Below, in pieces: positions 7,267-25,608 of a stretch of 32,000 bases of DNA (position 1 is its first letter; the number at the start of each line of letters is the position of its first letter). The notes beneath the pieces are model-generated. The model was given only the letters and a program-made list of their open reading frames with translations. It had not been told where the DNA came from and ran no database searches. The translations under genes and the position numbers were made by a program. Source of the stretch: Desulfovibrio sp. (lineage in GTDB: Bacteria; Desulfobacterota; Desulfovibrionia; Desulfovibrionales; Desulfovibrionaceae); the NCBI GenBank assembly GCA_031546885.1, contig JAVBJS010000017.1, positions 1,349 to 33,348 on the forward strand, given 5' to 3'.

Positions 7267-8004
7267 TTATATACCAGACAACTCCCCCGCAATGAAGTCT
7301 TTTGCCTGCGGGCCGCAATTGAATAGCAGATCCAGCGCCGAAAGGTAAGGAGCAAAGGTGCCGTGCAACTGGGGATATTCGCGTGGCAGGTACGCTTGAA
7401 ACATAAGGTCAATCCCGTGTGCCGCAAACAACTTACGGTCGATATAGTTCTTGCCTGCCGCTCCTTCGTAAAAACATGTTCCTCCAAGGGCGGTGACAAT
7501 ATTGATCAGCCGCTCGTTCTTTCCGCCGTGAACCCCCAGTTGCGAAGAGCGAACAAGAGGGGTGCGGATATCAAAGGATTGACACATCCATTCCAAAATT
7601 GCGATAGTTAAATCGCTTAAAAAGCTCCAGGGCTGATCCAAAATGGCAAAAAAGTCCGGTGCATACTGGGAGAACCAAAGGCTTTTTTTGTAGCTCTGCT
7701 CTAATGTAGCCCTATGTTTTTTTTTCCATTTTGCGGCATCCGCGCAAATAGAAATGCTGTTGAGCCTCTGTTCTGCACAAGCCATTGATGCATGCACGGG
7801 AACAGTCAACCAGCGGACTCCCTGATCTGTTTTTATTCTGTTTCTATTACGCCACCCATGCTTATCAAATGGCACGTCATCATAGAAAACGAAAACATCA
7901 GCACGGGCAATCTGCTCAAAATATCCAATCCATGGGATGTAACTTGGTTGCAAAATACCGATTGTTTTTGCGTTTATTCGTAACGCTGCGTGGTTTTTAA
8001 TCAT
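7267..8004 (-). CDS. WbqC-family protein (glycan-cluster protein of unclear function)
   Basis: IGILQPSYIPWIGYFEQIARADVFVFYDDVPFDKHGWRNRNRI is the characteristic WbqC-like N-terminus. The track start at 8028 is a TTG; the first ATG is 8004. Confidence 0.75.
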   Translation of the reverse strand: MIKNHAALRINAKTIGILQPSYIPWIGYFEQIARADVFVFYDDVPFDKHGWRNRNRIKTDQGVRWLTVPVHASMACAEQRLNSISICADAAKWKKKHRATLEQSYKKSLWFSQYAPDFFAILDQPWSFLSDLTIAILEWMCQSFDIRTPLVRSSQLGVHGGKNERLINIVTALGGTCFYEGAAGKNYIDRKLFAAHGIDLMFQAYLPREYPQLHGTFAPYLSALDLLFNCGPQAKDFIAGELSGI

Positions 8005-8458
8005 ATGTTTTTTTTTAAATTTTCTCAAGCATCTTTACCAGTTCAATCCTGGGCAGCGCCCCCTTCTCAGGCGGGTAAGGACGATCTGGGCAGGCGGTAC
8101 CCCCGTTGACAATGCGTAGTGAAGGGTTTTTGGACGGGCGCAGCATATTACCTAGAGCAATGAATCACTGAAAATTGCAGTTTGTTGAAGCCAAATAAGA
8201 ATCATTTCGGGCTCTGCCCAAACCCGACAGGGACTGTAAAGAGGGCTGCGTAAGGTGCCATTCAGCAATCGTATAGTGTTTCGTGGGTCACTCTACAGCA
8301 AAGCGCGCCACACCTGCACCCGGAATTTTTTGTTTTCTGCAAATAAAAACGCAAGGTTAAGTGTTATATGGCACTAGGCTACGTTGTCGATTTTCCAAAG
8401 CCTTGACGATATATTTTTATGTTGCAATTTAGACTGAAAGTCATACATATCAGCTTTT

Positions 8459-9628: not shown

Positions 9629-9887
9629 GTGGCTTCCTTAAAGAATGATCTTTTATTTCAAAGACTTTTTCAGTGGGCTGGTAGACAGGAAGAGAGAGGC
9701 TGTTTAGTGGAATAGCATGAGTCTCCACGGTCAAATGACGTCATAACCCACATATTTCACAAGTACGAACAAGTTCTTGAGATTTTACCTGTATTATTAG
9801 CAATTAACACAATTTCAACCTTACACTTCGCCATACAAATTGCGGATCAGGGGGGAGGGGGTCTGGGGTCGAGGACACAGGCCCTAT

Positions 9888-9927
9888 GGAGGGAAACTCA
9901 AGGGGATCATCCCTTGGGGTTCCCTCC
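9888..9927. repeat. Imperfect 17-18 bp hairpin in a G-rich stretch of an AT-rich spacer
   Basis: GGAGGGAAACTCAAGGGGAT / ATCCCTTGGGGTTCCCTCC are near reverse complements. They are preceded by G6-A-G5-TCT-G4 at 9850-9868. Confidence 0.5.
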
Positions 9928-10123
9928 CCCAGTCTCTCATGAAATATACGGCTAATTACATAGTAAAATTACATAGCAAGCAACGTTGTAATTTGTACTA
10001 AATAATTCCAAACAGAAGCTGCCTTAAAATAAAAGTGCATTACTTTGCTCACTTGCGAGCAAAACCATGAGTAGCGCGCTCCATATGTTATTTTGTAGAG
10101 TAGATAAGTTTATTCTTCTAAAA

Positions 10124-10982
10124 TTAAGGCGCGTTGGCGGGGAATCGCAGACTTTTGAAATCAAAAAGAATGCCATGCCACCCCTGCGCAGCGATATACT
10201 GTGTTGAATCTGTGTATTTACAAAAGGCTTTGGTCAGTCCCTCAATAGAAAATAATACTCTGTGCCCTGGGAAATACCTGTAAATATTAGTTACATCTTG
10301 CGGGTCAGCGTAGAGCAGGTGCTTCCAAGAAGACGCGGATGCGATGGGAAGAGAAACAAAGAGCAACGACTGATTAGAGCAATATGTTGCAAGCTCGTGC
10401 ACCATCAATAGAGGAGTTGCAAGGTGCTCAAGAACATGTATTGCTTAGAACCAGATCATATTTATCCAGCACTATAGAGCTGTTCCACTCCAAGGCCTGC
10501 AGTGCAATGGCATACGCTTCGCAGCCATGCGCAATGGAGACAGGATCGGTGTCGTACCCACAGACTTTTTTTCCCAGATTCGCAGCTACTTTGAGGGCCG
10601 TACCCGTTCCACAACCAATCTCAAGCACAGAAGAAAAATTCTTATAGGCTGCTATCTTGGTAAAAAGATCCTGTGCGTAGCCGATATTTCTTTCCTCTAC
10701 ATTTTTATGATGTGGCAGCCAATTTGAGGGTGAGGGCTTCTCGGAGTGAGCTGGAGCTGGTACAATCCAAAAAGAACGACAGTCGATACAGCAACGAAGC
10801 AATAAACGTGACGCGAGGCTATCAGTAAAAACATACCTGACAGGAACAACATAGGGGCTCTCGCAAGCAGGACATGCTTCTTTGCCTAACAAAAATGCAT
10901 TATCCATATCTCCCAGAGTGACACCAGAAATAGGACTGTGCAGTGAAGCCAGCATAGCGTTGCGATCCAAATCACTATTCAT
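10124..10982 (-). pseudogene. Frameshifted class I SAM methyltransferase with an N-terminal 4-Cys (zinc-ribbon-like) region
   Basis: ORF 10428..10982 carries CPACE...CCIDC and the SAM-binding motif VLEIGCGTGTALK, then stops after DLVLSNTCS. Shifting one nucleotide reads AIHVLEHLATPLLMVHELA..., the classic post-motif-II HVLEH box, and continues as track ORF 10124..10408. The frame break must lie within about 10431-10444. Confidence 0.6.
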
Positions 10983-11983: not shown

Positions 11984-12880
11984 TCACCCACCTGGACTGA
12001 TGCATCGTTTGCAAATAAAGTTTTCATCTGAGGCGCACTCTCCGGTGATTTTATCAGCCAAGCTCAAAAATTCGCTGCCCTTCAATATTTCGTGCAGGCC
12101 TGCCTTAGTGATATCGCCAAAAACAGTTTCCCGCTGGTAGTCCATACAGCAAAGTATGAGTTCACCCGTGTAAAGAAAATGTAGCCAATCCGTAACACGT
12201 ACACAGGAAAATCCCGTCAGGTCGGGCCGCACATTTTCCACCGTGTGAATATCATTGCGGTGGATGCTGCGTGCTCTGTCGTGGTAGGTAAAAAAGTGAA
12301 TGCTGTGTTTTTTTGTGATGCCGTTTTGTTGAAAAATTTCATTCCAAAAGCACAGATATTCTTCCTTGGAGAAAGAAAAATCGTGCTTAAGCTCAGGCAC
12401 TCTTCCTTCGCCCGCCCCATGAATGCGTATGGTCAGGGGGTGAGACTCTGCTTCTTTCAGCAAGTGAATAATATTACTCAAGCATTGCTCAAAGGGGATG
12501 CCCATGATTCCTTCAAAACTGCGCTTGTCAATGCCGTGAAAACTAAGCCAGATGTCATGCGGCCCCCCCTGCAAGGCAGCAATGAGCTTACGCGCTGCGG
12601 CTTTATCCAAAGCCAGAGCATTGGTGGAAACTTCAATAAGCACCGCTGGAAATGCTTCGCGAATCATTACGATGCGCTCAAATATTTGAGGATCGGCCAG
12701 CGGCTCATTTTCCAGATACGGGCAAATTTTTCTGATAGGCAGCGGCTTGAGCTCTCCCAGAATGCGTCGGAAAACCTGATCTGTCATGCGCCCAGGATTT
12801 TTTTTGTGCCAACTTTCCGGGTATGGGCACATTATGCAGCTGCCCGTGCAGACAGATGTAGTTTGAATTTGTATGTTCAT
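11984..12880 (-). CDS. Radical SAM enzyme with SPASM/twitch-type C-terminal Cys motifs (third paralog)
   Basis: CTGSCIMC eleven residues from the N-terminus. C-terminal CVRVTDWLHFLYTGELILC (C-x13(G)-x4-C) and CKRC. ATGA overlap with the upstream methyltransferase. Confidence 0.85.
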   Translation of the reverse strand: MNIQIQTTSVCTGSCIMCPYPESWHKKNPGRMTDQVFRRILGELKPLPIRKICPYLENEPLADPQIFERIVMIREAFPAVLIEVSTNALALDKAAARKLIAALQGGPHDIWLSFHGIDKRSFEGIMGIPFEQCLSNIIHLLKEAESHPLTIRIHGAGEGRVPELKHDFSFSKEEYLCFWNEIFQQNGITKKHSIHFFTYHDRARSIHRNDIHTVENVRPDLTGFSCVRVTDWLHFLYTGELILCCMDYQRETVFGDITKAGLHEILKGSEFLSLADKITGECASDENFICKRCISPGG

Positions 12881-13707
12881 AACGGTTTTGTGTGCTGCGA
12901 ATAAAAGGTCAAAGGCACGGGCGGCTTTTGCAGGCGCTCGTGCATGTTTGTTTTTGTATGCACGGAATCATAAACACCCAGTATCCAGGGCGATGGCGTC
13001 ATAGGGAACGATGCAAAATCTTTTTGAGCCAGCGCGTCATTTTCGAGCTTTTCAAGAACGATAACCATATTACGCACGGGATCGCGCAAGTCGCAGGAAA
13101 TTTCGCGAATAGTGAACGGGCAGGATTGTAATGCTTCGTTCAACAGTGCCGCATCAATTCGCGCACCATGTTGGCCCTCTCCTACTGCGTGTACTCGTGT
13201 TCCTTCAAACTGGAACAAAAAAAGCCCCCCTGGCTTTAATACCCTTAAGGCTTCTTTGATGTATGCAATAACGACACCCTGATCTATAATATGCTGAAAT
13301 ACACCCGCAGAAACAACAAATTCAACGGTGCTATCTGTAACGTCGTGCAACGAATTTCCATTTGTTAATACATAGCTGACGTTGGGCATGCAGCAACAGT
13401 AACTTTGTGCATTTTCAAGCATGGCGGCAGAGATGTCAACCCCAATGGCTTTCTTAAAATGGCAGGCAAGAATTTTCAAGAATCTTCCAATACCACACCC
13501 AATTTCTAAAACGGCAGAATCCGCACTCTTATAGCTGCCATACAGAGAATATCGCCGCAGCATCTGCTCAACAAAGCGCACTCCCACATTATGAAATTCT
13601 TCAAGATTCCAGCTTGCCCCAGCTTGTAAATGGCTTATGTAATTATATTGACTTTTGGCTGCAAGGGAGTCCCAGGTATTGCGCATTTCATGCAAGGTGT
13701 TTTTCAT
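12877..13707 (-). CDS. Class I SAM-dependent methyltransferase
   Basis: VLEIGCGIGRFLKILA...AIGVDISAAMLENA and LRVLKPGGLFLF motifs. The track ORF extends to 13986 but overlaps the upstream gene, whose stop is at 13724. I chose ATG 13707 (MKNTLHEMRNTWDSLA); 13785 is an alternative. Confidence 0.8.
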   Translation of the reverse strand: MKNTLHEMRNTWDSLAAKSQYNYISHLQAGASWNLEEFHNVGVRFVEQMLRRYSLYGSYKSADSAVLEIGCGIGRFLKILACHFKKAIGVDISAAMLENAQSYCCCMPNVSYVLTNGNSLHDVTDSTVEFVVSAGVFQHIIDQGVVIAYIKEALRVLKPGGLFLFQFEGTRVHAVGEGQHGARIDAALLNEALQSCPFTIREISCDLRDPVRNMVIVLEKLENDALAQKDFASFPMTPSPWILGVYDSVHTKTNMHERLQKPPVPLTFYSQHTKPL

Positions 13708-13723
13708 GGTATCGAGTTTGGCC

Positions 13724-15592
13724 TTAAAATAAAGAATTGTAGTCTGTTCGTTCAAATATGGTGAGATCTCCACCAATGGAGGCATTATGTATTTTTCTTC
13801 CTGCCGCTTCAAATGTTTCTCGTGCAAGTTTAAAATTACGCTCAACATGATAAAGCTGCGGATCATGCCATATTTTATTTTTAAAGTACTCAGGATGAAA
13901 GTGATTTGGATCGTCCTGCTCCGAGCATATTTGGTTCCCAGTAATATGCGCTCCAGAGGGGATAACATAGCGGTGATCCATTCCAATCAAGTACACTTCA
14001 CGGCACCCCAGCCAATAGGCCAGTTGCATATTAGTATAGGATATTGTGTGCCCGCTATATGATCTTTCCGCAAAGCATGTGGAAAAATGAGGTTGATGAT
14101 ACAGAGGTGAACTTTGACTGTAAAAACCTAAATTCAAGCGAAACCAATAGGAGTTGCTCCTATTGCTAATGCTGTCCCAATATTTGGTTGGAATGACGCG
14201 AGTGGCGACGGTATAAGCGTTAATAGCCGCAACATTCGCTTTAACAAATTCTGGGTCTTCCACAGTATAGAACGTGGGGATAAACCCTGTTTCTTCTGTT
14301 TTATAAAATATTCCATTACATGCGATGGTTATATCATCCTGTAGCAGACTAAGGTCATGCAAATTAAGAGACGGCCCGTTCCCTATAATAAAACAGCGCC
14401 TGTTGGCGTACAAGTTTTTCAAAGGCAACAGATCATTCCCATCAATAGGCCAAGGGCCGGGCTCTTCAAAGGTGCCCTGTTTCTCAGTTTTGGCAGACCT
14501 GCTGCCTTCAGCTTTTGCCGATGGGCAAACAGAAATGTGTGACTCTGACAACGTTATTTTTTCAAGCTCATGACGGAGCAGAAGATTCTCTTCTTTCAGA
14601 AGCCGTATTGTTTCTTCATGTTGCAAACGCAAGTACTTTTGTCTATCAAAAAAATGTAGTGCTTGCTGATACGCCACCAACATTGTTTTTGCCAAAGAAT
14701 CTAGGCTTACATTTTTCGTAGATGCAGCCAGCAAAGCAGCCAGATCCTCATCTGGAGATTCTGGCAAAGCGTCTGTGGCCATTGTGCGGAGGTTGCTGTA
14801 GAGTCGCGCTAAAAAACTTGTCTTCATTCGCTCTATCAGTTCATCCGGTACACCCTTTGTCCTGGCATAGGGGAGAAATTCCCTGAGCATCAACCCCATG
14901 GCTTCCACGGTTTCGGCTTTTTCACGCGATGCATTGTTGCACCAGTGGTGCCCATAAGCCATATGTTCAGTGCCTGCGTAACGGGTAGCATGTAGCAGAT
15001 AATGCGAAACCAGCAGTAAATCTTCCCGCCAGTGGCGTACTCCACTTGCTTGTGCACCCTCAAGTATTTTGAGCCACAGATCTCGCGAATACAGTTTGTT
15101 GTAAACGACATGCGCCCGCATGTCGGCATGTACGTAGGTAGAAAAAATATCGGGAGCTAGGAGGCGATCGTTGTAGGGGTGCGCCCATATCCATTCTCCC
15201 CGAAAACTGTGATCTTCGCCCAACATGGCAATGGGAAAATGAACAACATCGGCTTGCTCGTGCAGCATCACTTCTATATTTTTCGCCAACTCCTGTGTTC
15301 CCCACAGAATATCGTCAGCGTCCGCAAAAGCGATAATGCCCCCCCGTGCCTCTTTAATGCCAGTAAGGCGAGCATTTTTTGTGTATTGCCTGGTCGTATG
15401 TTCAATACATCGAATATTCAACCCTTTATCCAAATATTCAATAATAATATCCATGCAATGTTCATCAGAGGCATCATCAACAACGATAACTTCCATAGAA
15501 TGCACGTCTTGCGCAAGAATACTGTCAAGCAGACGCGGCAAAAGGTGCTTATGGTTATAATTGGCAATAACAATAGTAATTATTGGTGGCAT
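13724..15592 (-). CDS. Bifunctional glycosyltransferase: N-terminal GT2 domain, coiled-coil linker, C-terminal DUF115 (MptE-like / Maf-type) domain
   Basis: N-terminus: ITIVIANYNHKHLLPRLLDSILAQ...VIVVDDASDE...AFADADD. Linker: LRLQHEETIRLLKEENLLLRHELEKI. C-terminus: RRCFIIGNGPSLNLHDLSLLQDDITIACNG ... QLAYWLGCREVYLIGMDH. The GNGPSL box and the G-x-D box are the hallmarks I associate with DUF115/motility-accessory-factor and sialyltransferase-like proteins. Confidence 0.8.
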   Translation of the reverse strand: MPPIITIVIANYNHKHLLPRLLDSILAQDVHSMEVIVVDDASDEHCMDIIIEYLDKGLNIRCIEHTTRQYTKNARLTGIKEARGGIIAFADADDILWGTQELAKNIEVMLHEQADVVHFPIAMLGEDHSFRGEWIWAHPYNDRLLAPDIFSTYVHADMRAHVVYNKLYSRDLWLKILEGAQASGVRHWREDLLLVSHYLLHATRYAGTEHMAYGHHWCNNASREKAETVEAMGLMLREFLPYARTKGVPDELIERMKTSFLARLYSNLRTMATDALPESPDEDLAALLAASTKNVSLDSLAKTMLVAYQQALHFFDRQKYLRLQHEETIRLLKEENLLLRHELEKITLSESHISVCPSAKAEGSRSAKTEKQGTFEEPGPWPIDGNDLLPLKNLYANRRCFIIGNGPSLNLHDLSLLQDDITIACNGIFYKTEETGFIPTFYTVEDPEFVKANVAAINAYTVATRVIPTKYWDSISNRSNSYWFRLNLGFYSQSSPLYHQPHFSTCFAERSYSGHTISYTNMQLAYWLGCREVYLIGMDHRYVIPSGAHITGNQICSEQDDPNHFHPEYFKNKIWHDPQLYHVERNFKLARETFEAAGRKIHNASIGGDLTIFERTDYNSLF

Positions 15593-15600
15593 GGGATATT

Positions 15601-16773
15601 CTATGGCTCCACAATTGCATAAATAACAGTTTCACTAAAGTTGGGGAAATGATTCAATAGATATAATTTATATTCTGGAACATATTGTTTTATTATTCCA
15701 GGGAGATGAAGAAGATCCTGGTAAGAATTGTGATACGTGGAAATCATGAGTCTTGGCTTCCATTTCCGCAGGGTTTGTTGCGCTCCATGCAGGCACTCTG
15801 CTTCTGATCCTTCAATGTCGAGCTTAATAACATCAATTCGGGGAATGTTATGCTCACGCACGAATGAGTCTACATCAATCAGGCGGCATGTTGCTGTATT
15901 TTCGTTTTGCTGACTAACTACGCGAGAGCCACCAGCATTTGCGGTGATATGGGCTGAACCTTGCACGGAAGACAGGCCAAAGTTTTGCAGAGAAATAAGA
16001 TCTTTTAACTCACAATTACTGTGCTCTTTTATAAGCTGTTGAAAAAAAGATGGCTCTGGTTCAAAAGCGTACACTTTACCATTTGGTGCGGCAGCCTGCG
16101 CAAAGGCAACGACCTCGAGCAATCGTTCCGATATCCCCCCATCAATGACGATATCGCCCTGGCGTATCCAAGTCAGAGGAAATCTGTAGTTACGGTGTGT
16201 TGGCAGCTTAATAAAGCCGGGATCACCGGTAATGATTCCTTTGATCATTGAGGCCATGGCCGCTTTGCTTTCTGCATCAGAAAAAGCTTCGTATGAATAT
16301 TCCAGCTTACGAGAGTTATTGCGAAAAAAATCAGGTTGGGGATGTGTATACCAGAGAGTATTAGGAATTTCTGGATATATAGCGAAACTCTCTACAATCC
16401 CTGCAAGGGTTCGAATGGCGGCAAAATGATTGTTTGAGGCCTGCGGTGAAGCGGGATCTTCAAGATATACAAGCACGCGAGCGTCTGGATAGTCTATAAT
16501 ATCTTCATAATCAAGTACAGGAATAATAAATTTTCCAGCATCGGACTCTATATGTACAGCGGGAATGACAGCTTTCTTGCAGTCTGGAAACAGAATAATT
16601 CCACAAATTTTTACGTCATGGCATGTTGAACCAATATAAGAGATGGCCTCAGCTACAGCATTTTTTGATGTAACCAGCAAGACGTTCTTTGTATATTTAC
16701 TTAACCCACGCGATATATAAAGTGGGCACTTCAATAGTTGTTCTCTAAGTGTTCCGGCAACGTTTGTTTGCAT
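15601..16773 (-). CDS. FkbM-family SAM methyltransferase with a roughly 190-aa N-terminal domain of unknown function (paralog of 8459-9628)
   Basis: VIDGGISERLLEVVAFAQAAAPNGKVYAFEPEPSFF ... IDVIKLDIEGSEAECL ... RLMISTYH. The track start at 16827 is a TTG. ATG 16773 (MQTNVAG) gives an N-terminus collinear with the paralog. Confidence 0.8.
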   Translation of the reverse strand: MQTNVAGTLREQLLKCPLYISRGLSKYTKNVLLVTSKNAVAEAISYIGSTCHDVKICGIILFPDCKKAVIPAVHIESDAGKFIIPVLDYEDIIDYPDARVLVYLEDPASPQASNNHFAAIRTLAGIVESFAIYPEIPNTLWYTHPQPDFFRNNSRKLEYSYEAFSDAESKAAMASMIKGIITGDPGFIKLPTHRNYRFPLTWIRQGDIVIDGGISERLLEVVAFAQAAAPNGKVYAFEPEPSFFQQLIKEHSNCELKDLISLQNFGLSSVQGSAHITANAGGSRVVSQQNENTATCRLIDVDSFVREHNIPRIDVIKLDIEGSEAECLHGAQQTLRKWKPRLMISTYHNSYQDLLHLPGIIKQYVPEYKLYLLNHFPNFSETVIYAIVEP

Positions 16774-16843
16774 CAAATTATCCAGGTAAAAAAAACATAT
16801 GTAAAAGCTAATCCTCCCTAGCCACAAATACGCCTTTGTATAT

Positions 16844-17812
16844 TTATAATTGCAGAGATTTTATGGTATCTCTTACAACTTCTGCGTTGAGTGCAGTGGC
16901 AACAATCATGGCTTTAGTAAGTGTTTTTTTGTCAAAAAGCCGTAGGGCCTCTTTAAATAGGAGCCCTTGTGGATCAAAACCTTCCGACGCTGCAAGAGAG
17001 AGCCTCCCTGCGGCAACGCGCAATATTTTCAGGTACTTTTCCGAGAAAAGACGCAGTGTTTCCTCTGAGCAGCCCTGCTTTGCATAGTAGGGTAACACTT
17101 CTTCCAGCATGAGATAGGCATAAATGGTTCGCTCCGCCGTGTCTTGATTTCGCTTGCTGACGAAGCGGTAACCGTAGCCAACGTGCTCGCTCCCCGCGTA
17201 TTTGCGCGCATGGAAAAGAAAAAGGGGTGTCAAGTACGTATCTTCCGCATATCGGTAAAACCTGGTCTTCCAGGCCGTGTCAAGAACTTCCAGCCACTTC
17301 GCACGGGAATACAGTTTGTTCCAAACGACATCGCTTGCGTATGGCGTGCGCAGATAGGTGGTAAAGATATTTTCATTGCAGCCAGCAGGCATAAAAGGGT
17401 TGCCAAAATTAAAGTAAGAAGTAAAATCCCCGTGCGCATCGATTATCCCCGAGCGAAATTGCAGCACATCCAAATCGTTGTCGATAAATTGTCTTACGTG
17501 CTTTTCCAGCACCTCGGTACCCCATAGCAGGTCATCGGCATCCGCAAAGGCTATAATATCCGCCGTACTTGCTTTTATTCCAGCCAGTCGCGCGTTCTTG
17601 GTATATAACCGCTGAGGTGCGGTGATAAAGCGTATATTCAGCCCCTTGCTTCTGTAGGCTTCCAGCACATCAGTATAGGGGATGTCAGAATAGTCGTCTG
17701 ACACTACCACTTCCACCTCTCGCAGGGTCTGTGCTAGGATACTATCGAACAACATAGGCAGTGCATGCCCATGATTTCGGTTCGGAATAATTATGGAAAT
17801 AAGCGGCTTCAT
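16844..17812 (-). CDS. Family-2 glycosyltransferase
   Basis: LISIIIPNRNHGHALPMLFDSILAQTLREVEVVVSDDYSD ... IIAFADADDLLWG. Close paralog of 18506-19495 and of the N-terminal domain of 13724-15592. Confidence 0.85.
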   Translation of the reverse strand: MKPLISIIIPNRNHGHALPMLFDSILAQTLREVEVVVSDDYSDIPYTDVLEAYRSKGLNIRFITAPQRLYTKNARLAGIKASTADIIAFADADDLLWGTEVLEKHVRQFIDNDLDVLQFRSGIIDAHGDFTSYFNFGNPFMPAGCNENIFTTYLRTPYASDVVWNKLYSRAKWLEVLDTAWKTRFYRYAEDTYLTPLFLFHARKYAGSEHVGYGYRFVSKRNQDTAERTIYAYLMLEEVLPYYAKQGCSEETLRLFSEKYLKILRVAAGRLSLAASEGFDPQGLLFKEALRLFDKKTLTKAMIVATALNAEVVRDTIKSLQL

Positions 17813-18501
17813 ATAGGACTTCCTTCTGGAAACGCTTGCCAGGCAACCTCCGCCAAGCGGAAATCATCTTCTGTGTCGATATCCAGAGATTCTAGCCTGG
17901 ACATAGGGAAAAGATAAGGTGCTTTCCCTATTCTATTATGCCCATTTTGAAAAAATGATGCGGCTGAGAAGACATAGAGACAACTGTTTTCTTCATATAG
18001 CGGGGCAAGATCCTGGGTGTTCAGCAGGACTGCTGGGTCATGATTTAGCGGAGTAAAATCCGTCTTATAAAAACGGCTCTGATAGGAGAGCACAGAAAAA
18101 AGGGAGTCATAGTTATCCAGCCCATACATATAAGAGCTGATAGCGTTGGCAACAGTACCCGCCCGCAGCATCGGGTTAGTCACATGAGTTTGCAAATAAT
18201 GTCCTTCCCCTAAAAGTTGCAGGTCATAGGCGATAATGCTGTTCATGGAAATAGTATGTCCGCATAAATGCTGCGGACGCTCGTGTATTACAACCTTATC
18301 GTACTGCCTTGCGAGTTTTTCAACAGTACTGCTATCGGTATTAACAACAATGCTGCTGATACATGCTGTGAGCTGCAAGGTTGCCAACACTCGGCATAGC
18401 AATGGCTGTCCGCAGAAATTACGTGTGTTTTTCCCGTGAACCCGTTCCGAGGAGCCTTTAATCGGCACAAGTGCGGAAATTGATGTATGATTCATTTGCA
18501 C
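17809..18501 (-). CDS. Acylneuraminate cytidylyltransferase-family CMP-sugar synthetase
   Basis: ISALVPIKGSSERVHGKNTRNFCGQPLL (the P-x-K-G-S-x-R-x-x-x-KN box of the NeuA/KdsB-like family) and C-terminal LDIDTEDDFRLAE. Confidence 0.8.
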   Translation of the reverse strand: MQMNHTSISALVPIKGSSERVHGKNTRNFCGQPLLCRVLATLQLTACISSIVVNTDSSTVEKLARQYDKVVIHERPQHLCGHTISMNSIIAYDLQLLGEGHYLQTHVTNPMLRAGTVANAISSYMYGLDNYDSLFSVLSYQSRFYKTDFTPLNHDPAVLLNTQDLAPLYEENSCLYVFSAASFFQNGHNRIGKAPYLFPMSRLESLDIDTEDDFRLAEVAWQAFPEGSPI

Positions 18502-18505: not shown

Positions 18506-19495
18506 TTACGCAGGTTTGGGGAGCACGCCCCTGAGACTGTTTAAGATTTTTTCCGCATTTAACCGATTGCCAAGGAGTAATACGTTGAGCAGTGTATCTT
18601 CATCCGCATGAGTCAGTAATCGCGCGTATGCCTCTTCTGTCAGGGGTGTTATTTTATCACCCACTGCCGCAATGCTTATTTGGCCTGCACGATAACATAA
18701 CTGATGTTCCAAAATGTGCCTGCATAACAAAATCAGATCTTCAGGGCAATTTTTTTTCCTAAGATAGGGTAGTAATTCGTATATGGCATGATAAAAATAT
18801 ATTGCCCGACCGTTAGATTCGGCAATGCGCTCTTCGTAATAGTATGCATACCCAACAGCGGTACTCCCAATATACTTCTTGGCACTATACATAGCCAATA
18901 TAAGTAAGTAGGCATCTTCAATATAACACTTAACCAAAGATGTTGCGGCTCTTTCGTAATTTTCCAGTAAAAGTTTTTTGGAAAAAAGCTTATTCCAGAG
19001 ACTCGAACTTGCCCAAAAAGGAGCTTTTTTAAGGTAGCTACAGAAAATATCTTTTCCCTCAAGCCGTGGAGCAAAAGGGTCCGAATCAGCCGTATACTGT
19101 AGAAATTCACCATTTGCATCAACAATAATCGTTCTAAAATGCACAATATCCGCTTTTTCTTTCAGGAAAAGTAATACATTATACTCTAAAGCATCTGTAC
19201 CCCAAAAAAAATCGTCAGCATCAGCAAAGGCTATGATCTCCGCCTTTGCTGCCATTATACCTGTAAGGCGTGCTTTCATGGTATAAACGCGCTCATGGTG
19301 AGCGATGAAGGTGATACTTAGCCCTTTCCTTCTATATGCTTCAACAATACTGTCACAGGATTTCGCGGAACAGTCGTCAACAAGAATAACTTCTATTTGT
19401 TTTAATGTTTGCGCCAATATACTGTCAAGTAATCTTGACAAGGTTGCATTATGATTGCAGTGAGGAATAATGATGGAGAGGAGTGGGTCTGTCAT
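18506..19495 (-). CDS. Family-2 glycosyltransferase
   Basis: LLSIIIPHCNHNATLSRLLDSILAQTLKQIEVILVDDCS ... IIAFADADDFFWG. Confidence 0.85.
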   Translation of the reverse strand: MTDPLLSIIIPHCNHNATLSRLLDSILAQTLKQIEVILVDDCSAKSCDSIVEAYRRKGLSITFIAHHERVYTMKARLTGIMAAKAEIIAFADADDFFWGTDALEYNVLLFLKEKADIVHFRTIIVDANGEFLQYTADSDPFAPRLEGKDIFCSYLKKAPFWASSSLWNKLFSKKLLLENYERAATSLVKCYIEDAYLLILAMYSAKKYIGSTAVGYAYYYEERIAESNGRAIYFYHAIYELLPYLRKKNCPEDLILLCRHILEHQLCYRAGQISIAAVGDKITPLTEEAYARLLTHADEDTLLNVLLLGNRLNAEKILNSLRGVLPKPA

Positions 19496-19516: not shown

Positions 19517-20200
19517 TTATTTATAAACAGATACTGTACCATTGTCGTGATCAATATTGGTGTCAACACTTAACGCCGGGTTTCCGGCCATAATCTTGTT
19601 GTCACGACACCCCTTATATAGGAAAGCGCCAGGCGCAATTATATTGCCACTGCCGATTCGCGCATTTGCCAATATGACGGAGCGTACCCCAAGGCTATTT
19701 TGCGACCCTATCTGCACATTACCCAATACCAGGCTGAACGGGCCAAAAAAATTTGCGTCACCTACGGTAACATCGTGTCCAATAGTTACTGAGCCATTCA
19801 TATAATTTGCATTGCCAATGACTGTATTGCAGGAAATATATGTCGCACAAGCAAATATATTGGCTTCGCCAATGATTGCTCCAGGCAATATAGTCGTGAC
19901 TGGGTGGATTAACGTAAGAAATTCTACACCTTTTGCCTTCCATTTGTGAAAAGCCTTTGCCCGTAGTGCAGGTAAGCCCAGGCCAAGTACAAAGATGTCA
20001 TTCTGATTCGATGTATACTCGTCATCGATGCCCAATTGCAAATGGGCCAGCTCATGCAGCTCACCAGCGTGCCCTTCAAAGGACAGGAATCCCTTAAAAG
20101 CAAGATCCTTTCGTTGCCGCATGACTTCACACAGTAGCCAATAGCACTCGCGCGCCGCTCCCGCATTCCCAATGATAAGCACATTTCGCATACCGCTCAT
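19517..20200 (-). CDS. NeuD/PglD-family hexapeptide-repeat sugar N/O-acyltransferase
   Basis: N-terminal Rossmann-like VLIIGNAGAARE followed by left-handed beta-helix hexapeptide repeats (IGEANIFACATYISCNTVIGNANYMNGSVTIGHDVTVGDANFFG...). ATGA overlap with the SDR gene. Confidence 0.8.
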   Translation of the reverse strand: MSGMRNVLIIGNAGAARECYWLLCEVMRQRKDLAFKGFLSFEGHAGELHELAHLQLGIDDEYTSNQNDIFVLGLGLPALRAKAFHKWKAKGVEFLTLIHPVTTILPGAIIGEANIFACATYISCNTVIGNANYMNGSVTIGHDVTVGDANFFGPFSLVLGNVQIGSQNSLGVRSVILANARIGSGNIIAPGAFLYKGCRDNKIMAGNPALSVDTNIDHDNGTVSVYK

Positions 20201-20952
20201 TCAAAACCACCAGTCATCAACAAATTTTGGCCTGTAATCCAACGTGATGCAGAGGAAAGCAGATAGGTGGCCGCACCGGCCACATCGTCCGGCGCCCCAA
20301 GCCCCAAGGGATATGTTTGCTCCAACTCGGCAAGGGCACCAGCGCCCAACAGGCCTGCGTATTGCTCTGCCATAGGGGTTGCAACGAGAGCGGGGGAAAT
20401 AGAATTTACGCGCAACCCCGCAGGGGCGAGCTCTTTGCTGATATTGCGAGAGGCGGTTAGCAAAGCCCCCTTCGCCGCACTATAGATAAGTAGTGAGGCT
20501 GTTGGTGTGATGGCTCCAGCCGCAGCAATAAAAACAACAGCCGCGCCTTTGCCCACATTATTACGCCGATCTACAAACCCTTTTGTTAGTAGCATAGGAA
20601 CATGAAACAACAAATCAAACATCCTGTGTGCCGTATTCAAATCGTACTCACGCAGGGGGGCTGTAAGTGTAATTCCTGCGCAAGGCACTAGCCCACTTAG
20701 TTTTCCGTATTTTTCACGCAAAGATTTTATCCAGGCGGGCAGTGCCTCCATATCTTCCATCAACTCGCGTGGCTCTGCATGAAAGCGTTCTGGGCAGGTG
20801 GCACGGATTTTGTTGACCTCCAATCTTTCCCGGTTGCGCCCGCTAGCTATGACGGTTGCACCCAGGGCATTGCACTGCAAGGCAATTGCTTCGCCAATTC
20901 CAGAGCTTGCGCCGGTTACAAGAATACACTGCTCCGCAGTGAAGGAGATCAT
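20197..20952 (-). CDS. Short-chain dehydrogenase/reductase, FabG-like (3-oxoacyl-ACP reductase candidate)
   Basis: ILVTGASSGIGEAIA cofactor motif, YSAAKGAL (YxxxK), 251 aa. ATGA overlap with the ACP gene. Confidence 0.85.
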   Translation of the reverse strand: MISFTAEQCILVTGASSGIGEAIALQCNALGATVIASGRNRERLEVNKIRATCPERFHAEPRELMEDMEALPAWIKSLREKYGKLSGLVPCAGITLTAPLREYDLNTAHRMFDLLFHVPMLLTKGFVDRRNNVGKGAAVVFIAAAGAITPTASLLIYSAAKGALLTASRNISKELAPAGLRVNSISPALVATPMAEQYAGLLGAGALAELEQTYPLGLGAPDDVAGAATYLLSSASRWITGQNLLMTGGFE

Positions 20953-21176
20953 GCCACAGCGCCTTTTGTTAAGGCAACAATATCTGCGACAGTTTGTAAT
21001 GGCTTGAAATCTTTGAATGTCGTTTTTACTTTGAACTTTTTGTCAAGATAGGCAATACACGCCATGACAGCAAGAGAATCCCACTCTTCCATGTCACTTA
21101 AAACAGAATCCAGCGTAATAGATCCTTCCCGTTGTAAAACATCCTGAAATTCTTCCAAAAATTGTGCTGTTGTCAT
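20949..21176 (-). CDS. Acyl carrier protein
   Basis: Small acidic protein with EEWDSLAVMACIAYL (the DSL phosphopantetheine-attachment serine context). I chose ATG 21176 (MTTAQFLEEF), which is preceded by GGAAAG. ATG 21198-21200 is an alternative start. Confidence 0.7.
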   Translation of the reverse strand: MTTAQFLEEFQDVLQREGSITLDSVLSDMEEWDSLAVMACIAYLDKKFKVKTTFKDFKPLQTVADIVALTKGAVA

Positions 21177-21201
21177 AATTCTTTCCACTGTAATAAACAT
21201 A

Positions 21202-22365
21202 TTACGCTGTTGTTTTTCCAGAAATTTTCTTCTGCCAATACTGCAAAACCTGTTCAGAGGTGGGGTGCCCTGCCGGCATTACAAAATCACGCACCCCAGA
21301 GCACCAGATGTTATCCAACGCGACAATGCCGGAAGCCCAAGCAAGCCCCACTCCGTAGCCGGAGAGCAATACCTGCACAGATGAGGTTGTTACTGCCTCA
21401 GTGAGGGTATCACAAATGGCGGAAGGGATGGAGGCCCCGGCCTGGTTGCCATATTTACTGAAAGTCTCATATGAAGCTTTTTCCAGAGGAAATCCAGCAT
21501 TTTCGGCAATTGCCAAGATAATTTGCTTGTTCGCCTGATGAAGAATAAGCTTGTCTATGTCTTCTGGGGTTTTGTTGGCGTAGCATAAGAGATCACGTAT
21601 ATGCACTGGTATCATCGTCATGGTAAACTCAAAGACAGCCCCACCGTCCATATACGTCGAAACCAAGCGCCAAGGAGTACCATTTGGATCGTATATACGC
21701 TCACAGTAGGGGGAAAACTCTTCCATTTTCTTAGGCAATGGCAGACGAGCTCCACCTGCAGGAATCATTAAGGCTTCCGCTCCGCTTCCGTCAGAACCCA
21801 GCACAAACCACGAAGGAGTCGGTTTCGCTGCATACTCAACAAGCGTAGCCGTACCACAATCGCCAAAAATAGGAGTAGTTATTCTATTGTCCTTGTCATC
21901 CAGACGGGCAAGCCCTTCGCCAACAAGAAGAAGTACGCGGGAGCACGCACGCGACTCTAGCAGTGAAGAAGCCAACCATAAGCCATAGGTGAACCCGGCG
22001 CAGCCTTGGTTTACGTCAAAGGCGGCACATGCTTGCGACAATGACAGCTTATGCTGCAATATACACGCCGTTGCAGGTAAGTAATGATCTGGCCCTTGCG
22101 ATACAAATATGATGGCATCAATACTAGCCTTATCAATTTTCATGCCTTCCAGAAGATTTTCCGCCGCCTGCTGACAAAGATCTGCCGCGGTAACACCCTC
22201 TTCCGCAATACGCCGTCGGTCTATACCAACCATTTTCGTGGCGCGTTGAGCTTTTTTAATGTTTCCGTCAAAATATTGAAGTTCATCCAGCAAGCTAATT
22301 TCGTGCGGAGGGACTACGGTGCTAATGCCGCGGATCTGTGCATGTTGAAAGGTAGATTTTGCCAT
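21202..22365 (-). CDS. KAS III (FabH-like) 3-oxoacyl-ACP synthase
   Basis: AFDVNQGCAGFTYGLWLA (active-site Cys), LILHQANKQI (His), KYGNQAGASIPSAI (Asn). This is a complete Cys-His-Asn triad context, as in FabH. Confidence 0.85.
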   Translation of the reverse strand: MAKSTFQHAQIRGISTVVPPHEISLLDELQYFDGNIKKAQRATKMVGIDRRRIAEEGVTAADLCQQAAENLLEGMKIDKASIDAIIFVSQGPDHYLPATACILQHKLSLSQACAAFDVNQGCAGFTYGLWLASSLLESRACSRVLLLVGEGLARLDDKDNRITTPIFGDCGTATLVEYAAKPTPSWFVLGSDGSGAEALMIPAGGARLPLPKKMEEFSPYCERIYDPNGTPWRLVSTYMDGGAVFEFTMTMIPVHIRDLLCYANKTPEDIDKLILHQANKQIILAIAENAGFPLEKASYETFSKYGNQAGASIPSAICDTLTEAVTTSSVQVLLSGYGVGLAWASGIVALDNIWCSGVRDFVMPAGHPTSEQVLQYWQKKISGKTTA

Positions 22366-22371
22366 ATACTC

Positions 22372-23511
22372 TCATTTTACAGATTTTTTAACAATCTGCA
22401 TAATCCGTTCCACAATTCCCTCTTCAAGGTCTGCATACAAAGGCAAACTAAGAACTCGTGTACATATGCTTTCTGCTACCGGGCAGTGGGTACGGCTTGT
22501 CAGATAAGGTAATGTATTAAGAGCGGGGTAAAAATAGCGGCGAGGGAAAATATTTTCTTGATTCATGCTCACCAAGGCCCGTTGCATGGCGTTGGTATCA
22601 TCAAAGATTACAGGGTAATAGGCATAGTTATAGGTAATGTCGCTGTGCAGGCGTGGTTTGCGCACTCCATGGGAAGGGAAAAAAGAATCATATAGCTGGC
22701 TAATCTTTTTTCTGTCCGCAATGTTTTGAGTGACTTTATCCAATAAACAGAGCCCCATTGCCGCATGCGGCTCTGTGAGTTTGGCATTGATGCCAAGTGT
22801 ATGGTGAGTATCGTTTGTATGTCCAAAAGCCCGCAACAATGCTAAATAATCATACGATGCCTGAGTGCGGCTAACAATACCGCCACCTTCAACTGTATGA
22901 AACACCTTAGTGGCGTGAAAGCTCACTGTTGAAAAATCTCCATACGAGAGTAGACTTTTCCCTTTATAAAGCGTTCCAAAAGCCTGAGCTGCATCATAAA
23001 GAGTCGTCAGGTTATTGCGTGCGGCAATTTTTTCAATGGCCTCCACATCACAAGCGTTGCCATAAACATGTACAGGCAATATCGCACCTGTAGCATCAGA
23101 GCAAAGGTTTTCCAGGTTGCCAGGGTCGAGGCAGAGCGTTTCTTCGTCAATATCCGCAAAAATAGGGGTACACCCTTCCCATAAAACGGCGGAAACAGAA
23201 GCCACATAACTGAACGGTGTAGTGATAATTTCCCGACCTACCAAGCCACCTGCCCGCAAGCTGAGTTGAAGAGCAAGTGTCCCATTAGTACACAACGCCA
23301 AAAAAGGAATATCCAAAAATTTACAGAGCTCTTGTTCAAGCCTGGCCGTGTGCTCTCCCATGTTAGTGAGATGACGCGAGGAGAGAATGCGTGAAATACA
23401 TTCGGCGTATTCCACTGGGTCAGGAATAATCGCTCTGGTAACATGAATGGCTTGTTGGGATCGATTGCCATCACAACAAGGTACTGCATTTTCCGGCGTA
23501 GATTCTATCAC
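22372..23511 (-). CDS. DegT/DnrJ/EryC1/StrS-family PLP sugar aminotransferase (first gene of the island operon)
   Basis: LALCTNGTLALQLSLRAGGLVGREIITTPFSY, DAAQAFG, VSFHATKVFHTVEGG. GTG start at 23511 preceded by AAGGAA 6-7 nt upstream. Confidence 0.9.
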   Translation of the reverse strand: MIESTPENAVPCCDGNRSQQAIHVTRAIIPDPVEYAECISRILSSRHLTNMGEHTARLEQELCKFLDIPFLALCTNGTLALQLSLRAGGLVGREIITTPFSYVASVSAVLWEGCTPIFADIDEETLCLDPGNLENLCSDATGAILPVHVYGNACDVEAIEKIAARNNLTTLYDAAQAFGTLYKGKSLLSYGDFSTVSFHATKVFHTVEGGGIVSRTQASYDYLALLRAFGHTNDTHHTLGINAKLTEPHAAMGLCLLDKVTQNIADRKKISQLYDSFFPSHGVRKPRLHSDITYNYAYYPVIFDDTNAMQRALVSMNQENIFPRRYFYPALNTLPYLTSRTHCPVAESICTRVLSLPLYADLEEGIVERIMQIVKKSVK

Positions 23512-23659: not shown

Positions 23660-23782
23660 GCCTGTGGGGGCATACCCTCAGAGCAAGGGCAGAAAGAGAT
23701 TTGCACCTGAATTTTACTAGAAACCCAAAAAATGAGTTCGTTGCACATTGCAACGAGCTCTGGCGATTGCGCAGCAAACGCC

Positions 23783-23938
23783 CGCAAGCGGACAGCGTAG
23801 CGTGCCTTTCTTTCAAAATTCGTAGCGGATTTTGAAAGCTTGTTGGAAAATTATGCCTTATTTTTCAGCAAGATAAAACGATACATTTTCTTATCCAGTG
23901 AAGATAAAGAGAAAGGCACGCTGCGCTGTTCGCTTGCG
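23783..23938. repeat. 30-bp imperfect inverted repeat pair (27/30) enclosing a 96-bp segment
   Basis: Left arm, 23783-23812: CGCAAGCGGACAGCGTAGCGTGCCTTTCTT. The reverse complement of the right arm, 23909-23938, is CGCAAGCGAACAGCGCAGCGTGCCTTTCTC. Confidence 0.8.
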
Positions 23939-24060
23939 AGCACCTGCTACGCAGTTGCCAGAGGCCATTGTGCAATGGCCTCTGCCTTGTGAAATTTGCA
24001 GCGAATTTTGAAAGCCTGTTAAAACTTTAGATATTTATTTTCAGCTAGATGCAAGAACGA
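23803..24060 (+). repeat. Two diverged copies of a roughly 80-nt direct repeat (23803-23881 and 23977-24060)
   Basis: Shared blocks are GCG(G/A)ATTTTGAAAGC(T/C)TGTT and TATTTT(T/-)CAGC(A/T)AGAT...AACGA, about 176 nt apart. Each copy carries a TTGAAA box (23832-23837; 24008-24013). Copy 2 has GATATT 16 nt downstream. Confidence 0.65.
23959..23984. repeat. 26-nt near-perfect palindrome
   Basis: CAGAGGCCATTG TG CAATGGCCTCTG: 12-bp arms, with only the central dinucleotide breaking the symmetry. Confidence 0.85.
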
Positions 24061-24351
24061 CTTTACTCCCGCGGAAGCGAAAAAATAGATTGCTTGTTGA
24101 ATGTTTAATAAAATCAGTTGAGCGGCTGCCATTAAACAGAGATATTTCTTTTTTTCTAGACTTATGTTAGAGAGCGGCGTCAATTACTACTATTTTCTGA
24201 TAGACTGTTTCATATTTGAAATTGTTGAAATTATCCAGACCTACCATATCAGAAGAAATGTTTTCTACAGATGCAGGTGTAAGGGATTGCGTTGTCACAA
24301 AGCAATTGCCTGAACAGGCGGGCTGCATAAATTTTGAGGGAGAAAAAGCTC

Positions 24352-25608
24352 ATGCAAGGACAGAGTATTCCTATAGGCGTAGAATCGCTTGCTCAAGAAG
24401 AAGACTGGCGTGAGCCGGGCGTGCTCTATGCAGATGCGCCCGACCTGCTCGATATGTGGTATGGTATGGCTATGGCAGACTATGTAGCCGGAGGTTTTCG
24501 CAGTGATGACCCACGAGCTATCATGCAAGGGCCGCAGGAAACAAACGCTCTGGAGCAATTTTACAGCGAAGACTTGGCCCTTGGTAGAACCGCAGGAGCC
24601 GCTAGCGTCTATGGTAATGAATCTGCCCATTCACCCTCAGCACCTTTGGCGCAAGAATATATGCAGCCCGCCCCCATGGCACAGGCTCCGCAAGCCCCTA
24701 TTATGCAGCCGACCCCGATGATGCAAACTCCGCAAGCTCCTATTATGCAGCCGACCCCGATGATGCAAACTCCGCAAGCGCCATACACCGCTCCGGTCAT
24801 GCAGGCAGCTCCCACGATGCAAGCTCCGCATACTGTTTCGGATCTGCAACCTGCTCTCATGATGCAGGCTTCGCAACTTCCGCAGGCTCCGTATAGTGCT
24901 CCACCTATGCAGCCAGCTTCCATGATGCAAGCCCCACAGGCACAGTACATAGCTCCGGCCATGCAGCCTGCGTCTACGATGCAGGCCCAGTACATAGTTC
25001 CGGTTATGCCGCCTGTGCCTACGATGCAGGCTCAGTTCATAGCTCCGGCCATGCAGCCTGTGCCTATTGCACAGGTGGTGCAAACTCCTTACAGCGCCCC
25101 GGCGATGCAACCGGCATCTGTAGTGTCGGCTCCGCAAGCTGCGCATCCCGTTTTGGCCATGCAGCCAGCCCCTGCGATGCAGGTAGCCCCGGCAGCGATT
25201 ACGGCGCCGAATGCCGGAGGAGATGACGTGGCAGTGGTTGAGGCTGAATTGCGTGCGGAATTTGAAAATATTCTGTTAGCCATGCGCAGTGATAGCGCTA
25301 TGGATATTTCTTCCGCTCTTGCAACGATTTTTTCGCGGCGGCATCTGCTGACGCGGCGACAAAAGCATATGTTTTCGGAATTTGGCGCAACGCTTCGCCG
25401 CGAGCGCCAGCATAAGCATTCGCTTGCCTGCCATATGCAGGCTTTGCTTCTTGCCCCTGGTGATGGGCATATACTGTTTAATATAGCGCGGGCTAAATAT
25501 GATCTGGGCGATATTCCTTCTGCCAAGACATACTTGGAACAGGCCCTTGCGGCTTCGCCGGATTTTGCTGTAGCTCAGAATTTTTTGGACTTTTTGAATA
25601 GTAACTAA
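24352..25608 (+). CDS. Met/Gln/Pro/Ala-rich tandem-repeat protein with a TPR-like C-terminus, function unknown
   Basis: The track ORF starts at TTG 24334. ATG 24352 is preceded by GAGGGAG 9 nt upstream. The central region of about 190 aa is a degenerate array of MQ(P/A)xP...MQAPQAPY units. The C-terminus (HILFNIARAKYDLGDIPSAKTYLEQALAASPDFAVAQNFL) looks TPR-like. No obvious signal peptide. Confidence 0.7.
   Translation: MQGQSIPIGVESLAQEEDWREPGVLYADAPDLLDMWYGMAMADYVAGGFRSDDPRAIMQGPQETNALEQFYSEDLALGRTAGAASVYGNESAHSPSAPLAQEYMQPAPMAQAPQAPIMQPTPMMQTPQAPIMQPTPMMQTPQAPYTAPVMQAAPTMQAPHTVSDLQPALMMQASQLPQAPYSAPPMQPASMMQAPQAQYIAPAMQPASTMQAQYIVPVMPPVPTMQAQFIAPAMQPVPIAQVVQTPYSAPAMQPASVVSAPQAAHPVLAMQPAPAMQVAPAAITAPNAGGDDVAVVEAELRAEFENILLAMRSDSAMDISSALATIFSRRHLLTRRQKHMFSEFGATLRRERQHKHSLACHMQALLLAPGDGHILFNIARAKYDLGDIPSAKTYLEQALAASPDFAVAQNFLDFLNSN
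24688..24771 (+). repeat. 42-bp tandem duplication (2 copies, 1 mismatch) inside the repeat-protein gene
   Basis: 24688-24729 and 24730-24771 are CCGCAAGC(C/T)CCTATTATGCAGCCGACCCCGATGATGCAAACT, encoding PQAPIMQPTPMMQT twice. Confidence 0.9.

Follow-up and report, generated by a model that had tools for sequence, protein, structure and literature searches.

We analysed a 32,000-nucleotide stretch of a Desulfovibrio sp. assembly (GCA_031546885.1, contig JAVBJS010000017.1, positions 1,349 to 33,348 of the forward strand; hereafter the window, in whose coordinates all positions are given) and focused on five genes of its minus strand, located at 19517-23511, which a reading of the sequence alone had proposed to build a short 3-hydroxyacyl chain on a private acyl carrier protein (ACP) and to place it on an amino sugar. 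As that reading had described, the five open reading frames (ORFs) are consecutive and partly overlapping. In order they correspond to a DegT-type sugar aminotransferase (DegT1), a 3-ketoacyl-ACP synthase III (KAS III), the private ACP, a classical short-chain dehydrogenase/reductase (SDR) and a NeuD/PglB/VioB-type acyltransferase, with domains assigned using Pfam and NCBIfam models (Table 1). Six nucleotides (nt) separate DegT1 from KAS III and 1 nt separates KAS III from the ACP, while ATGA stop/start overlaps join the ACP to the SDR and the SDR to the acyltransferase, a spacing that is operon-like and has the geometry of translational coupling. The start of the ACP is probably not the listed ATG at 21200, which gives a protein of 83 amino acids (aa) that appears to be too long and that was not in the protein collection, where the neighbouring cassette proteins were found. 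The ATG at 21176, preceded by a GGAAAG ribosome-binding site, gives a 75-aa protein matching the size of the orthologues, and with this start the gap to KAS III is 25 nt.

The KAS III kept the intact Cys-His-Asn context that had been ascribed to it. C122, H276 and N307 aligned with C112, H244 and N274 of E. coli FabH and were invariant across 20 homologues. Compared with FabH the protein carries about 23 inserted aa and reaches about 35 aa further at its C-terminus; it scored 233.7 bits with the model PRK12880 and 180.3 bits with the fabH model TIGR00747, below the cut-off of 292.1, and its top PDB match was 4efi (E = 1.5e-64), with E. coli FabH at about 1e-30. A protein search returned 3011 matches at E <= 0.001. 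In a genome scan the nearest relatives were metagenome-assembled genomes of Desulfovibrionaceae (57-65% identity). The enzyme belongs to a distinct clade of proteins of about 385 aa that carry this insertion, and it is not the housekeeping FabH. Loss of the modifiable serine of the ACP, which the sequence-only reading had named as a reason to abandon its proposal, was not observed: Ser42, in the motif WDSL, was invariant in 52/52 aligned sequences (the ACP of the window and 51 orthologues). With the AcpP models NF002147 and NF002150 the ACP scored 24.6 bits (cut-off 84) and 22.9 bits (cut-off 66), respectively. The KAS III, the SDR and the ACP all fell short of the cut-offs of the housekeeping type II fatty acid synthase models FabH, FabG and AcpP.

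The lysine of DegT1 predicted to bind pyridoxal phosphate (PLP), K202 in the motif SFHATK, was invariant in 21/21 sequences. The best NCBIfam models for this protein were DesI (TIGR04427, 221.6 bits, cut-off 650), PseC (TIGR03588, 180.3 bits, cut-off 423.5) and LegC (TIGR04181, 174.7 bits, cut-off 420), its top PDB match was the perosamine synthetase 3bn1 (E = 7e-45), and it was 55% identical to the DegT protein of another Desulfovibrio sp. locus (L083). DegT1 is presumed to put a C4 amine on a nucleoside diphosphate (NDP)-4-keto-6-deoxy sugar, although its substrate specificity could not be assigned because the DesI, PseC and LegC scores were all under the cut-off. The top model for the acyltransferase was TIGR03570 (120.7 bits, cut-off 160.8), covering residues 7-209 of 227, which makes it a divergent relative of this subfamily and not a member at the curated threshold. 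Its top PDB match was VioB (7txp, E = 1.4e-13), with both domains aligned (residues 4-211), followed by PglB, PglD and PerB. His142, which aligned with a conserved His of VioB and PglB and was kept in 43/44 sequences, presumably corresponds to the residue that serves PglD-type enzymes as catalytic base. Catalytic residues are intact in four of the five cassette proteins, the exception being the SDR.

The same five functions (DegT, KAS III, small ACP, SDR and NeuD/VioB-type transferase) are found in the viosamine island of P. syringae pv. tabaci, which encodes the aminotransferase VioA, the KAS III VioS, an ACP, the 3-oxoacyl-ACP reductase VioR and the acetyltransferase VioB, as well as VioM and VioT, and whose product is dTDP-N-(3-hydroxy-1-oxobutyl)-2-O-methylviosamine for the flagellin glycan (PMC3927599). 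In vioA, vioB, vioR and vioT mutants the sugar is lost from flagellin (PMC3927599). Its homologues in P. aeruginosa PAK are orfA-E, G and N of the a-type flagellin glycosylation island, where OrfA is an aminotransferase of the DegT type and OrfE resembles VioB; identities between P. syringae and PAK are 35% for the KAS III, 19% for the ACP and 28% for the SDR (PMC3927599). The Rickettsia peacockii plasmid pRPR has near copies of the PAK genes orfB, orfC, orfD, orfF and orfG (80-91% positives; PMC2791219), and we used the pRPR OrfB/C/D-like proteins as proxies for the PAK proteins. Identity to these proxies was 36% for the window KAS III (OrfC-like, E = 1.5e-71), 30% for the ACP (OrfB-like, E = 2e-8), with the motif EWDSL common to both carriers, and 37% for the SDR (OrfD-like, E = 1e-41), values that equal or exceed those separating P. 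syringae from PAK.

In P. syringae VioA, VioS, the ACP, VioR and VioB measure 372, 338, 69, 253 and 213 aa, and their counterparts in the window 379, 387, 75-83, 251 and 227 aa, the KAS III being about 50 aa longer than VioS. Its insertion relative to FabH is shared with the PAK/pRPR OrfC-type proteins. Both the P. syringae island and the window have methyltransferases and glycosyltransferases alongside, in a flagellin glycosylation setting. The gene order differs, however: vioA, vioM, vioT, vioS, vioB, vioR, then acp, in P. syringae, versus DegT, KAS III, ACP, SDR and transferase in the window. The PAK/pRPR type has, in addition, a Rieske/SRPBCC oxygenase (OrfF), for which BLASTP gave no significant match to any protein of the window, and a hexapeptide transferase of another kind (OrfG, E = 0.22 against the NeuD-like protein). 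By sequence the cassette is a further example of the known viosamine-island-type system, and the idea that an ACP-dependent cassette of this kind is a poorly known novelty did not survive, since the gene set had already been described in PAK (orfA-E) and in P. syringae (vioA/vioS/acp/vioR/vioB).

Our preferred reading, to which we assign a probability of roughly 0.7, is that the five genes form a viosamine-island-type module dedicated to N-acyl amino sugars, which would build a C4 acyl group on its private ACP and attach it to an amino sugar. All steps of the mechanism are deduced from homology. The RmlB-like dehydratase encoded in the same island would supply an NDP-4-keto-6-deoxyhexose, which DegT1, through the PLP bound to Lys202, would convert into an NDP-4-amino-4,6-dideoxyhexose. 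The ACP would be phosphopantetheinylated at Ser42 and malonylated by the housekeeping AcpS and FabD; the KAS III, using Cys122, His276 and Asn307, would then carry out one condensation of a short acyl-coenzyme A (acyl-CoA; in the simplest case acetyl-CoA) with malonyl-ACP, giving acetoacetyl-ACP, which the SDR would reduce to 3-hydroxybutanoyl-ACP. Without an elongating KAS, a dehydratase and an enoyl reductase, the chain would stay at C4. Finally the NeuD/VioB-type transferase would use His142 to move the acyl group to the sugar amine, and the downstream family 2 glycosyltransferases (GT2), the Maf-type enzyme and the FkbM methyltransferases would add the sugar to the flagellar glycan and methylate it. 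The core of the sequence-only reading, a short acyl chain assembled on a private ACP and passed to the amine installed by the DegT enzyme, is therefore favoured by the intact catalytic residues of four proteins, by conserved synteny and by the genetics of vioA, vioB and vioR in P. syringae (PMC3927599), while its 3-hydroxy stop is insecure and both the ACP donor and the acceptor sugar are predictions.

Table 1. Cassette genes and other island genes of the window discussed in the text.
Feature	Coordinates	Strand	Remarks
DegT/DnrJ/EryC1-family PLP sugar aminotransferase (DegT1)	22372-23511	minus	379 aa; first cassette gene; PF01041, E = 1.3e-82
KAS III-type condensing enzyme	21202-22365	minus	387 aa; PF08545 and PF08541
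Private ACP	20949-21200	minus	83 aa as ORF; PF00550, 28 bits
Classical SDR	20197-20952	minus	251 aa; PF13561, 135 bits; PF00106, 113 bits; presumed 3-oxoacyl-ACP reductase
NeuD/PglB/VioB-type left-handed beta-helix N-acyltransferase	19517-20200	minus	227 aa; PF00132; TIGR03570, 120.7 bits
GT2	18506-19495	minus	PF00535; directly downstream in the same operon-like run
CMP-sialic-acid-synthetase-like cytidylyltransferase	17809-18501	minus	PF02348; PseF model 83 bits, below cut-off
GT2	16844-17812	minus	PF00535
FkbM-type methyltransferase	15601-16827	minus	PF05050
GT2 and MptE-like (Maf-type) fusion, single ORF	13724-15592	minus	N-terminal PF00535; C-terminal PF01973, E = 2.2e-18
dTDP-glucose 4,6-dehydratase-like (RmlB-like)	6186-7235	minus	TIGR01181, 348 bits (cut-off 365.1); LegB 183 bits; PseB 51 bits

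Several points weigh against the viosamine-type module. None of the five cassette proteins reached a curated NCBIfam equivalog cut-off, and neither FabD nor AcpS is encoded in the window. For the predicted product, N-(3-hydroxybutanoyl)-4-amino-4,6-dideoxyglucose on flagellin, the support is contextual, coming from the RmlB-like gene, the Maf domain and the nearby FliJ. Transfer from acyl-ACP rather than from CoA is a prediction, and the solved enzymes of the NeuD/PglD/VioB family, to our knowledge, use acetyl-CoA. Further such points concern the SDR and the acceptor sugar, and are given below with the alternatives on which they bear.

With regard to the donor, the textbook precedent for the proposed transfer is LpxD, whose fold is likewise a left-handed beta-helix and which uses (R)-3-hydroxyacyl-ACP for the N-acylation of a nucleotide amino sugar. 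LpxD differs in using long chains made by the housekeeping fatty acid synthase on AcpP and in its domain architecture; the window protein, with weak matches to LpxD and LpxA models and 38 bits with the LpxD model (cut-off 207), belongs instead to the NeuD/PglD/VioB branch. The same product chemistry, a 3-hydroxyacyl amide placed on a 4- or 3-amino-dideoxyhexose by a hexapeptide transferase, is achieved by acyl-CoA-dependent systems such as anthrose biosynthesis (AntA-D of Bacillus anthracis) and the FdhC-type 3-hydroxybutanoyl-CoA transferases, but these make their donor as a thioester of CoA and have no dedicated KAS III or ACP. The use of acetyl-CoA by the solved family members would also agree with the reverse order of events, in which the VioB-like enzyme N-acetylates the amino sugar, the KAS III and ACP lengthen this group to N-acetoacetyl while it is bound to the nucleotide sugar, and reduction by the SDR takes place at that stage. 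Such a pathway, with dTDP-N-acetoacetylviosamine as an intermediate, has been proposed for P. syringae (PMC3927599). We find it hardly credible, since by established enzymology the Claisen condensation of a KAS III needs a thioester-derived acyl group on its cysteine, for which an amide-bound acetyl would be unsuitable, and since assembly on the carrier best explains why there is a dedicated ACP whose phosphopantetheine serine is invariant.

The SDR bears on whether the group transferred by the viosamine-type module is reduced. Its description as FabG-like was only partly upheld: it is a classical SDR with the TGxxxGIG motif (TGASSGIG) and with Tyr157 and Lys161 of YxxxK, but in place of the catalytic Ser138 and Asn110 of FabG it has Ala144 and Leu115, respectively, so that two of the four N-S-Y-K residues are replaced, and with the FabG equivalog TIGR01830 it scored 93 bits (cut-off 297.75). 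This sets it apart from the P. syringae island and from the pRPR OrfD-like SDR, which retains the full tetrad. The loss of Ser and Asn was common to six other SDR orthologues (L004, L008, L009, L012, L014 and L020), most orthologues retaining both, and it was accompanied in all seven of these SDRs by a Thr two residues past the 'AG' of an NNAG-like motif. Moreover, cassettes without any SDR occur elsewhere (L003, L015, L033, L054 and L084). Both observations count against a completed reduction: the residues of the window SDR imply that the step may be weak, altered or absent, and the SDR-less cassettes that it is not obligatory in this module family. The 3-hydroxy stage, at which the chain had been said to stop, is consequently an uncertain end-point, although the observation behind that claim held, as Pfam gave no match for FabD, FabA/Z or enoyl reductases among the annotated ORFs of the window.

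These same features could mean that the SDR is impaired or has been repurposed, and that the group transferred is 3-oxobutanoyl (acetoacetyl) or another non-hydroxy C4 acyl. We consider this unlikely. The ORF is still full-length, and Tyr157, Lys161 and the glycine-rich cofactor motif have been kept and are conserved; several genomes have the same variant, suggesting a working protein; and the P. syringae glycan requires vioR.

The sequence-only reading had also suggested looking for the five genes together in other genomes, and the outcome was in its favour. A genome scan with the KAS III profile returned 78 loci, 67 of which were informative, with at least 2.5 kb downstream of the KAS III gene. 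KAS III, ACP and SDR followed each other in the same order in 39 of these 67 loci, and in 32/67 the order extended to the acyltransferase; a DegT gene lay within 6 kb in 26 loci. The 78 loci came from Desulfovibrionaceae, Gastranaerophilales/Melainabacteria, Alphaproteobacteria, Opitutales, Campylobacterota, Synergistaceae, Acidobacteria and others, mainly as gut metagenome bins, and the four-gene order was seen, among others, in Desulfovibrionaceae, Gastranaerophilales, Alphaproteobacteria, Opitutales and Campylobacterota. The arrangement of the cassette is a real module, beyond chance. It is also portable and combinatorial, having one to three KAS III copies, with the SDR present or absent, and lying next to dTDP-hexose or nonulosonic-acid genes. 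More than one KAS III was present in 18 loci. Loci such as L019, L043, L044, L047, L055, L057 and L084 have two or three paralogues of KAS III, a KAS III-ACP-SDR set in duplicate or further SDRs, and the additional KAS III and SDR copies suggest longer or differently processed acyl chains.

Versions of the module that lack the acyltransferase were also found (L079/L080, and 7 of the 39 KAS III-ACP-SDR trios), as would be expected if the trio made an unrelated small lipid or polyketide-like product while the NeuD-like enzyme merely acetylated the amino sugar. The flagellin islands of Aeromonas group II and Enterobacteriaceae could be cited for the same idea, as they carry ACP, FabG and LuxC/E genes of unknown role; they resemble the window in having a private ACP and a FabG-like SDR beside pse and maf genes, but differ in using AMP-ligase/LuxE activation and a LuxC reductase, without a KAS III or a NeuD-type transferase. 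This explanation is nevertheless very unlikely, given that the acyltransferase comes directly after the trio in the window (with overlapping stop and start codons) and in 32 loci, that all copies lie in glycosyltransferase-rich loci, and that the genetics of P. syringae tie vioR to the N-acyl group.

The surroundings of the cassette fit a flagellin glycosylation island, which in this Desulfovibrionaceae-like bacterium would take the form of an operon of about 20 kb headed by the cassette. We base this context on the Maf-type domain, the gene resembling CMP-N-acetylneuraminate (CMP-NeuAc) synthetases, the GT2s, the FkbM methyltransferases and the nearby FliJ. Apart from the genes of Table 1, the minus-strand run includes methyltransferases (four FkbM-type and others), three radical-SAM/SPASM proteins, WbqC, a second DegT and a WecF-like protein, while FliJ and an FlbB-like gene lie upstream of the cassette on the opposite strand. 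A similar order was seen in the Desulfovibrio sp. locus L083 (DegT, KAS III, ACP, SDR, hexapeptide transferase, FkbM, MptE-like, CTP_transf_3, FkbM, GT2). The PDB matches of the cytidylyltransferase were CMP-NeuAc synthetases (E = 1.6e-11), and it was 65% identical to its counterpart at the equal relative position in L004/L083. The ORF of the GT2-MptE fusion overlaps the annotated start of the methyltransferase ORF 12877-13986 by 263 nt, which indicates that the true start of the latter is probably further downstream.

These neighbours bear on the acceptor, which for the preferred module is predicted to be either a viosamine-type hexose or a nonulosonic-acid precursor. The former is favoured by the RmlB-like gene, the sole source of an NDP-4-keto-6-deoxyhexose for the aminotransferase in the window, and by the DesI-best score of DegT1. 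Counting against it are the similar DegT1 scores for DesI, PseC and LegC, the CMP-sialic-acid-synthetase-like gene in the operon, which together with the Maf-type domain is a feature that the P. syringae island does not share and that points to a nonulosonic acid component, and the presence of NeuB/PseI-like genes beside the module elsewhere. Across the related loci the nearby acceptor-sugar markers gave a mixed picture that was not decisive, with NeuB/PseI-like genes in 6, a cytidylyltransferase in 4, RmlB-like genes in 3 and FdtA in 1 (plus L084 by annotation). One related locus, L082, lies on plasmid p3 of Azospirillum brasilense Sp7 (NZ_CP033315.1, 322183-341184) and encodes, between pseG and pseI, a KAS III of the same clade (38% identity) together with two SDRs, a GNAT and an SRPBCC/Rieske-type protein; no ACP was listed there in the PLSDB gene table. 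By gene content L082 ties the acyl module to pseudaminic-acid biosynthesis in this strain.

The same acyl module could accordingly serve another acceptor. DegT1 and the NeuD-like enzyme would then act like LegC/LegH or PseC/PseH on a UDP- or GDP-4-amino-4,6-dideoxy-N-acetylhexosamine, and the C4 acyl group would become the 7-N-acyl of a legionaminic- or pseudaminic-type acid that receives its CMP from the downstream cytidylyltransferase and is passed on by the Maf-type enzyme. LegH is itself a PglD-type hexapeptide transferase, and this cytidylyltransferase, encoded two genes downstream, is similar to CMP-NeuAc synthetases and, weakly, to PseF. The MptE/Maf domain within the operon, the 180 and 175 bits of DegT1 on PseC and LegC, the KAS III and SDR genes between pseG and pseI in A. 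brasilense and the NeuB/PseI-like ORFs near the cassette in six loci point the same way. On the other hand, NeuB/PseI/LegI synthases, PseG and a LegG-type epimerase were not found in the 32-kb window, its only 4,6-dehydratase reached 348 bits with the dTDP-glucose dehydratase model, far above its 183 with LegB and 51 with PseB, and the best model for DegT1 was DesI, a viosamine-forming enzyme. On balance we regard this acceptor as doubtful, though a genuine contender. A more specific version, in which the SDR without Ser and Asn and the operon with its CMP-sialic-acid-synthetase-like gene and Maf domain together reflect a rewired module that makes a nonulosonic acid with an ACP-derived 7-N-acyl group (3-oxobutanoyl or another non-canonical C4), seems improbable to us; if true, it would be the first genetic route by which gut sulfate reducers put N-hydroxybutanoyl/oxobutanoyl nonulosonates on their flagella.

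Returning to the viosamine-type module, the cassette is a gut Desulfovibrionaceae-like instance of it with a slightly aberrant reductase; the initial observation was confirmed and its logic was largely right. If the mechanism is correct it would explain short hydroxyacyl amides on the flagellar sugars of gut Desulfovibrionaceae, Gastranaerophilales, Alphaproteobacteria and Opitutales, decorations that can alter antigenicity and flagellin recognition. Genetic support for the ACP-dependent route comes from Pseudomonas only, and no reconstitution was found in the literature searched, where we also found no paper pairing viosamine with an acyl carrier protein, a broader query returning lipid A work only. 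Any member of the module could serve for reconstitution, and for such biochemistry the window adds nothing beyond the Pseudomonas genes. What the survey adds are two modest points, the portability of the module and the existence of a subclade, including the window, with an incomplete SDR tetrad.

At the distal end of the island (1967-3085 and 3085-8028, minus strand) lie the RmlB-like dehydratase, the second DegT, WbqC, two radical-SAM/SPASM proteins and the weakly WecF-like protein. The second DegT scored 314 bits with the PseC model and 299 bits with ArnB, both below the cut-off, and this end of the island is possibly a second amino-sugar branch. Between it and the cassette there are two ORF-poor gaps (8029-8458 and 9629-10427) and, at 10428-10982, a 184-aa methyltransferase fragment whose SAM-binding domain reaches the end of the ORF; these three segments may be decayed genes.

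The intergenic region upstream of DegT1 contains a long hairpin (23735-23980, minus strand), with 61-nt inverted-repeat arms at 23751-23811 and 23910-23970 that are 80% complementary. As RNA it had a minimum free energy of -122 kcal/mol (z = -12.8 versus shuffled sequences), and it is followed by a terminator-like stem and T-run at 23756-23738. A 59-nt direct repeat is also present here (23816-23874 and 23992-24050, 75% identity). The hairpin could be a miniature inverted-repeat transposable element, a small RNA or leader, or a recombination site; Rfam returned no family at the gathering score anywhere in the window, the hairpin included. A sigma-54-like promoter match upstream of DegT1 (23945-23960, 3 mismatches) was rejected, as the whole window contained 42 such matches versus 40.9 expected by chance and hence gave no evidence for it, and scans for sigma-70 promoters and terminators were near background and uninformative. 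Further upstream, a divergent ORF on the plus strand (24334-25608) encodes a protein with a C-terminal tetratricopeptide repeat region, and its centre (24660-25179) consists of Pro/Gln/Met/Ala-rich tandem repeats of about 14-15 aa, which correspond to DNA repeat families of 42 and 45 nt in 7-8 copies.

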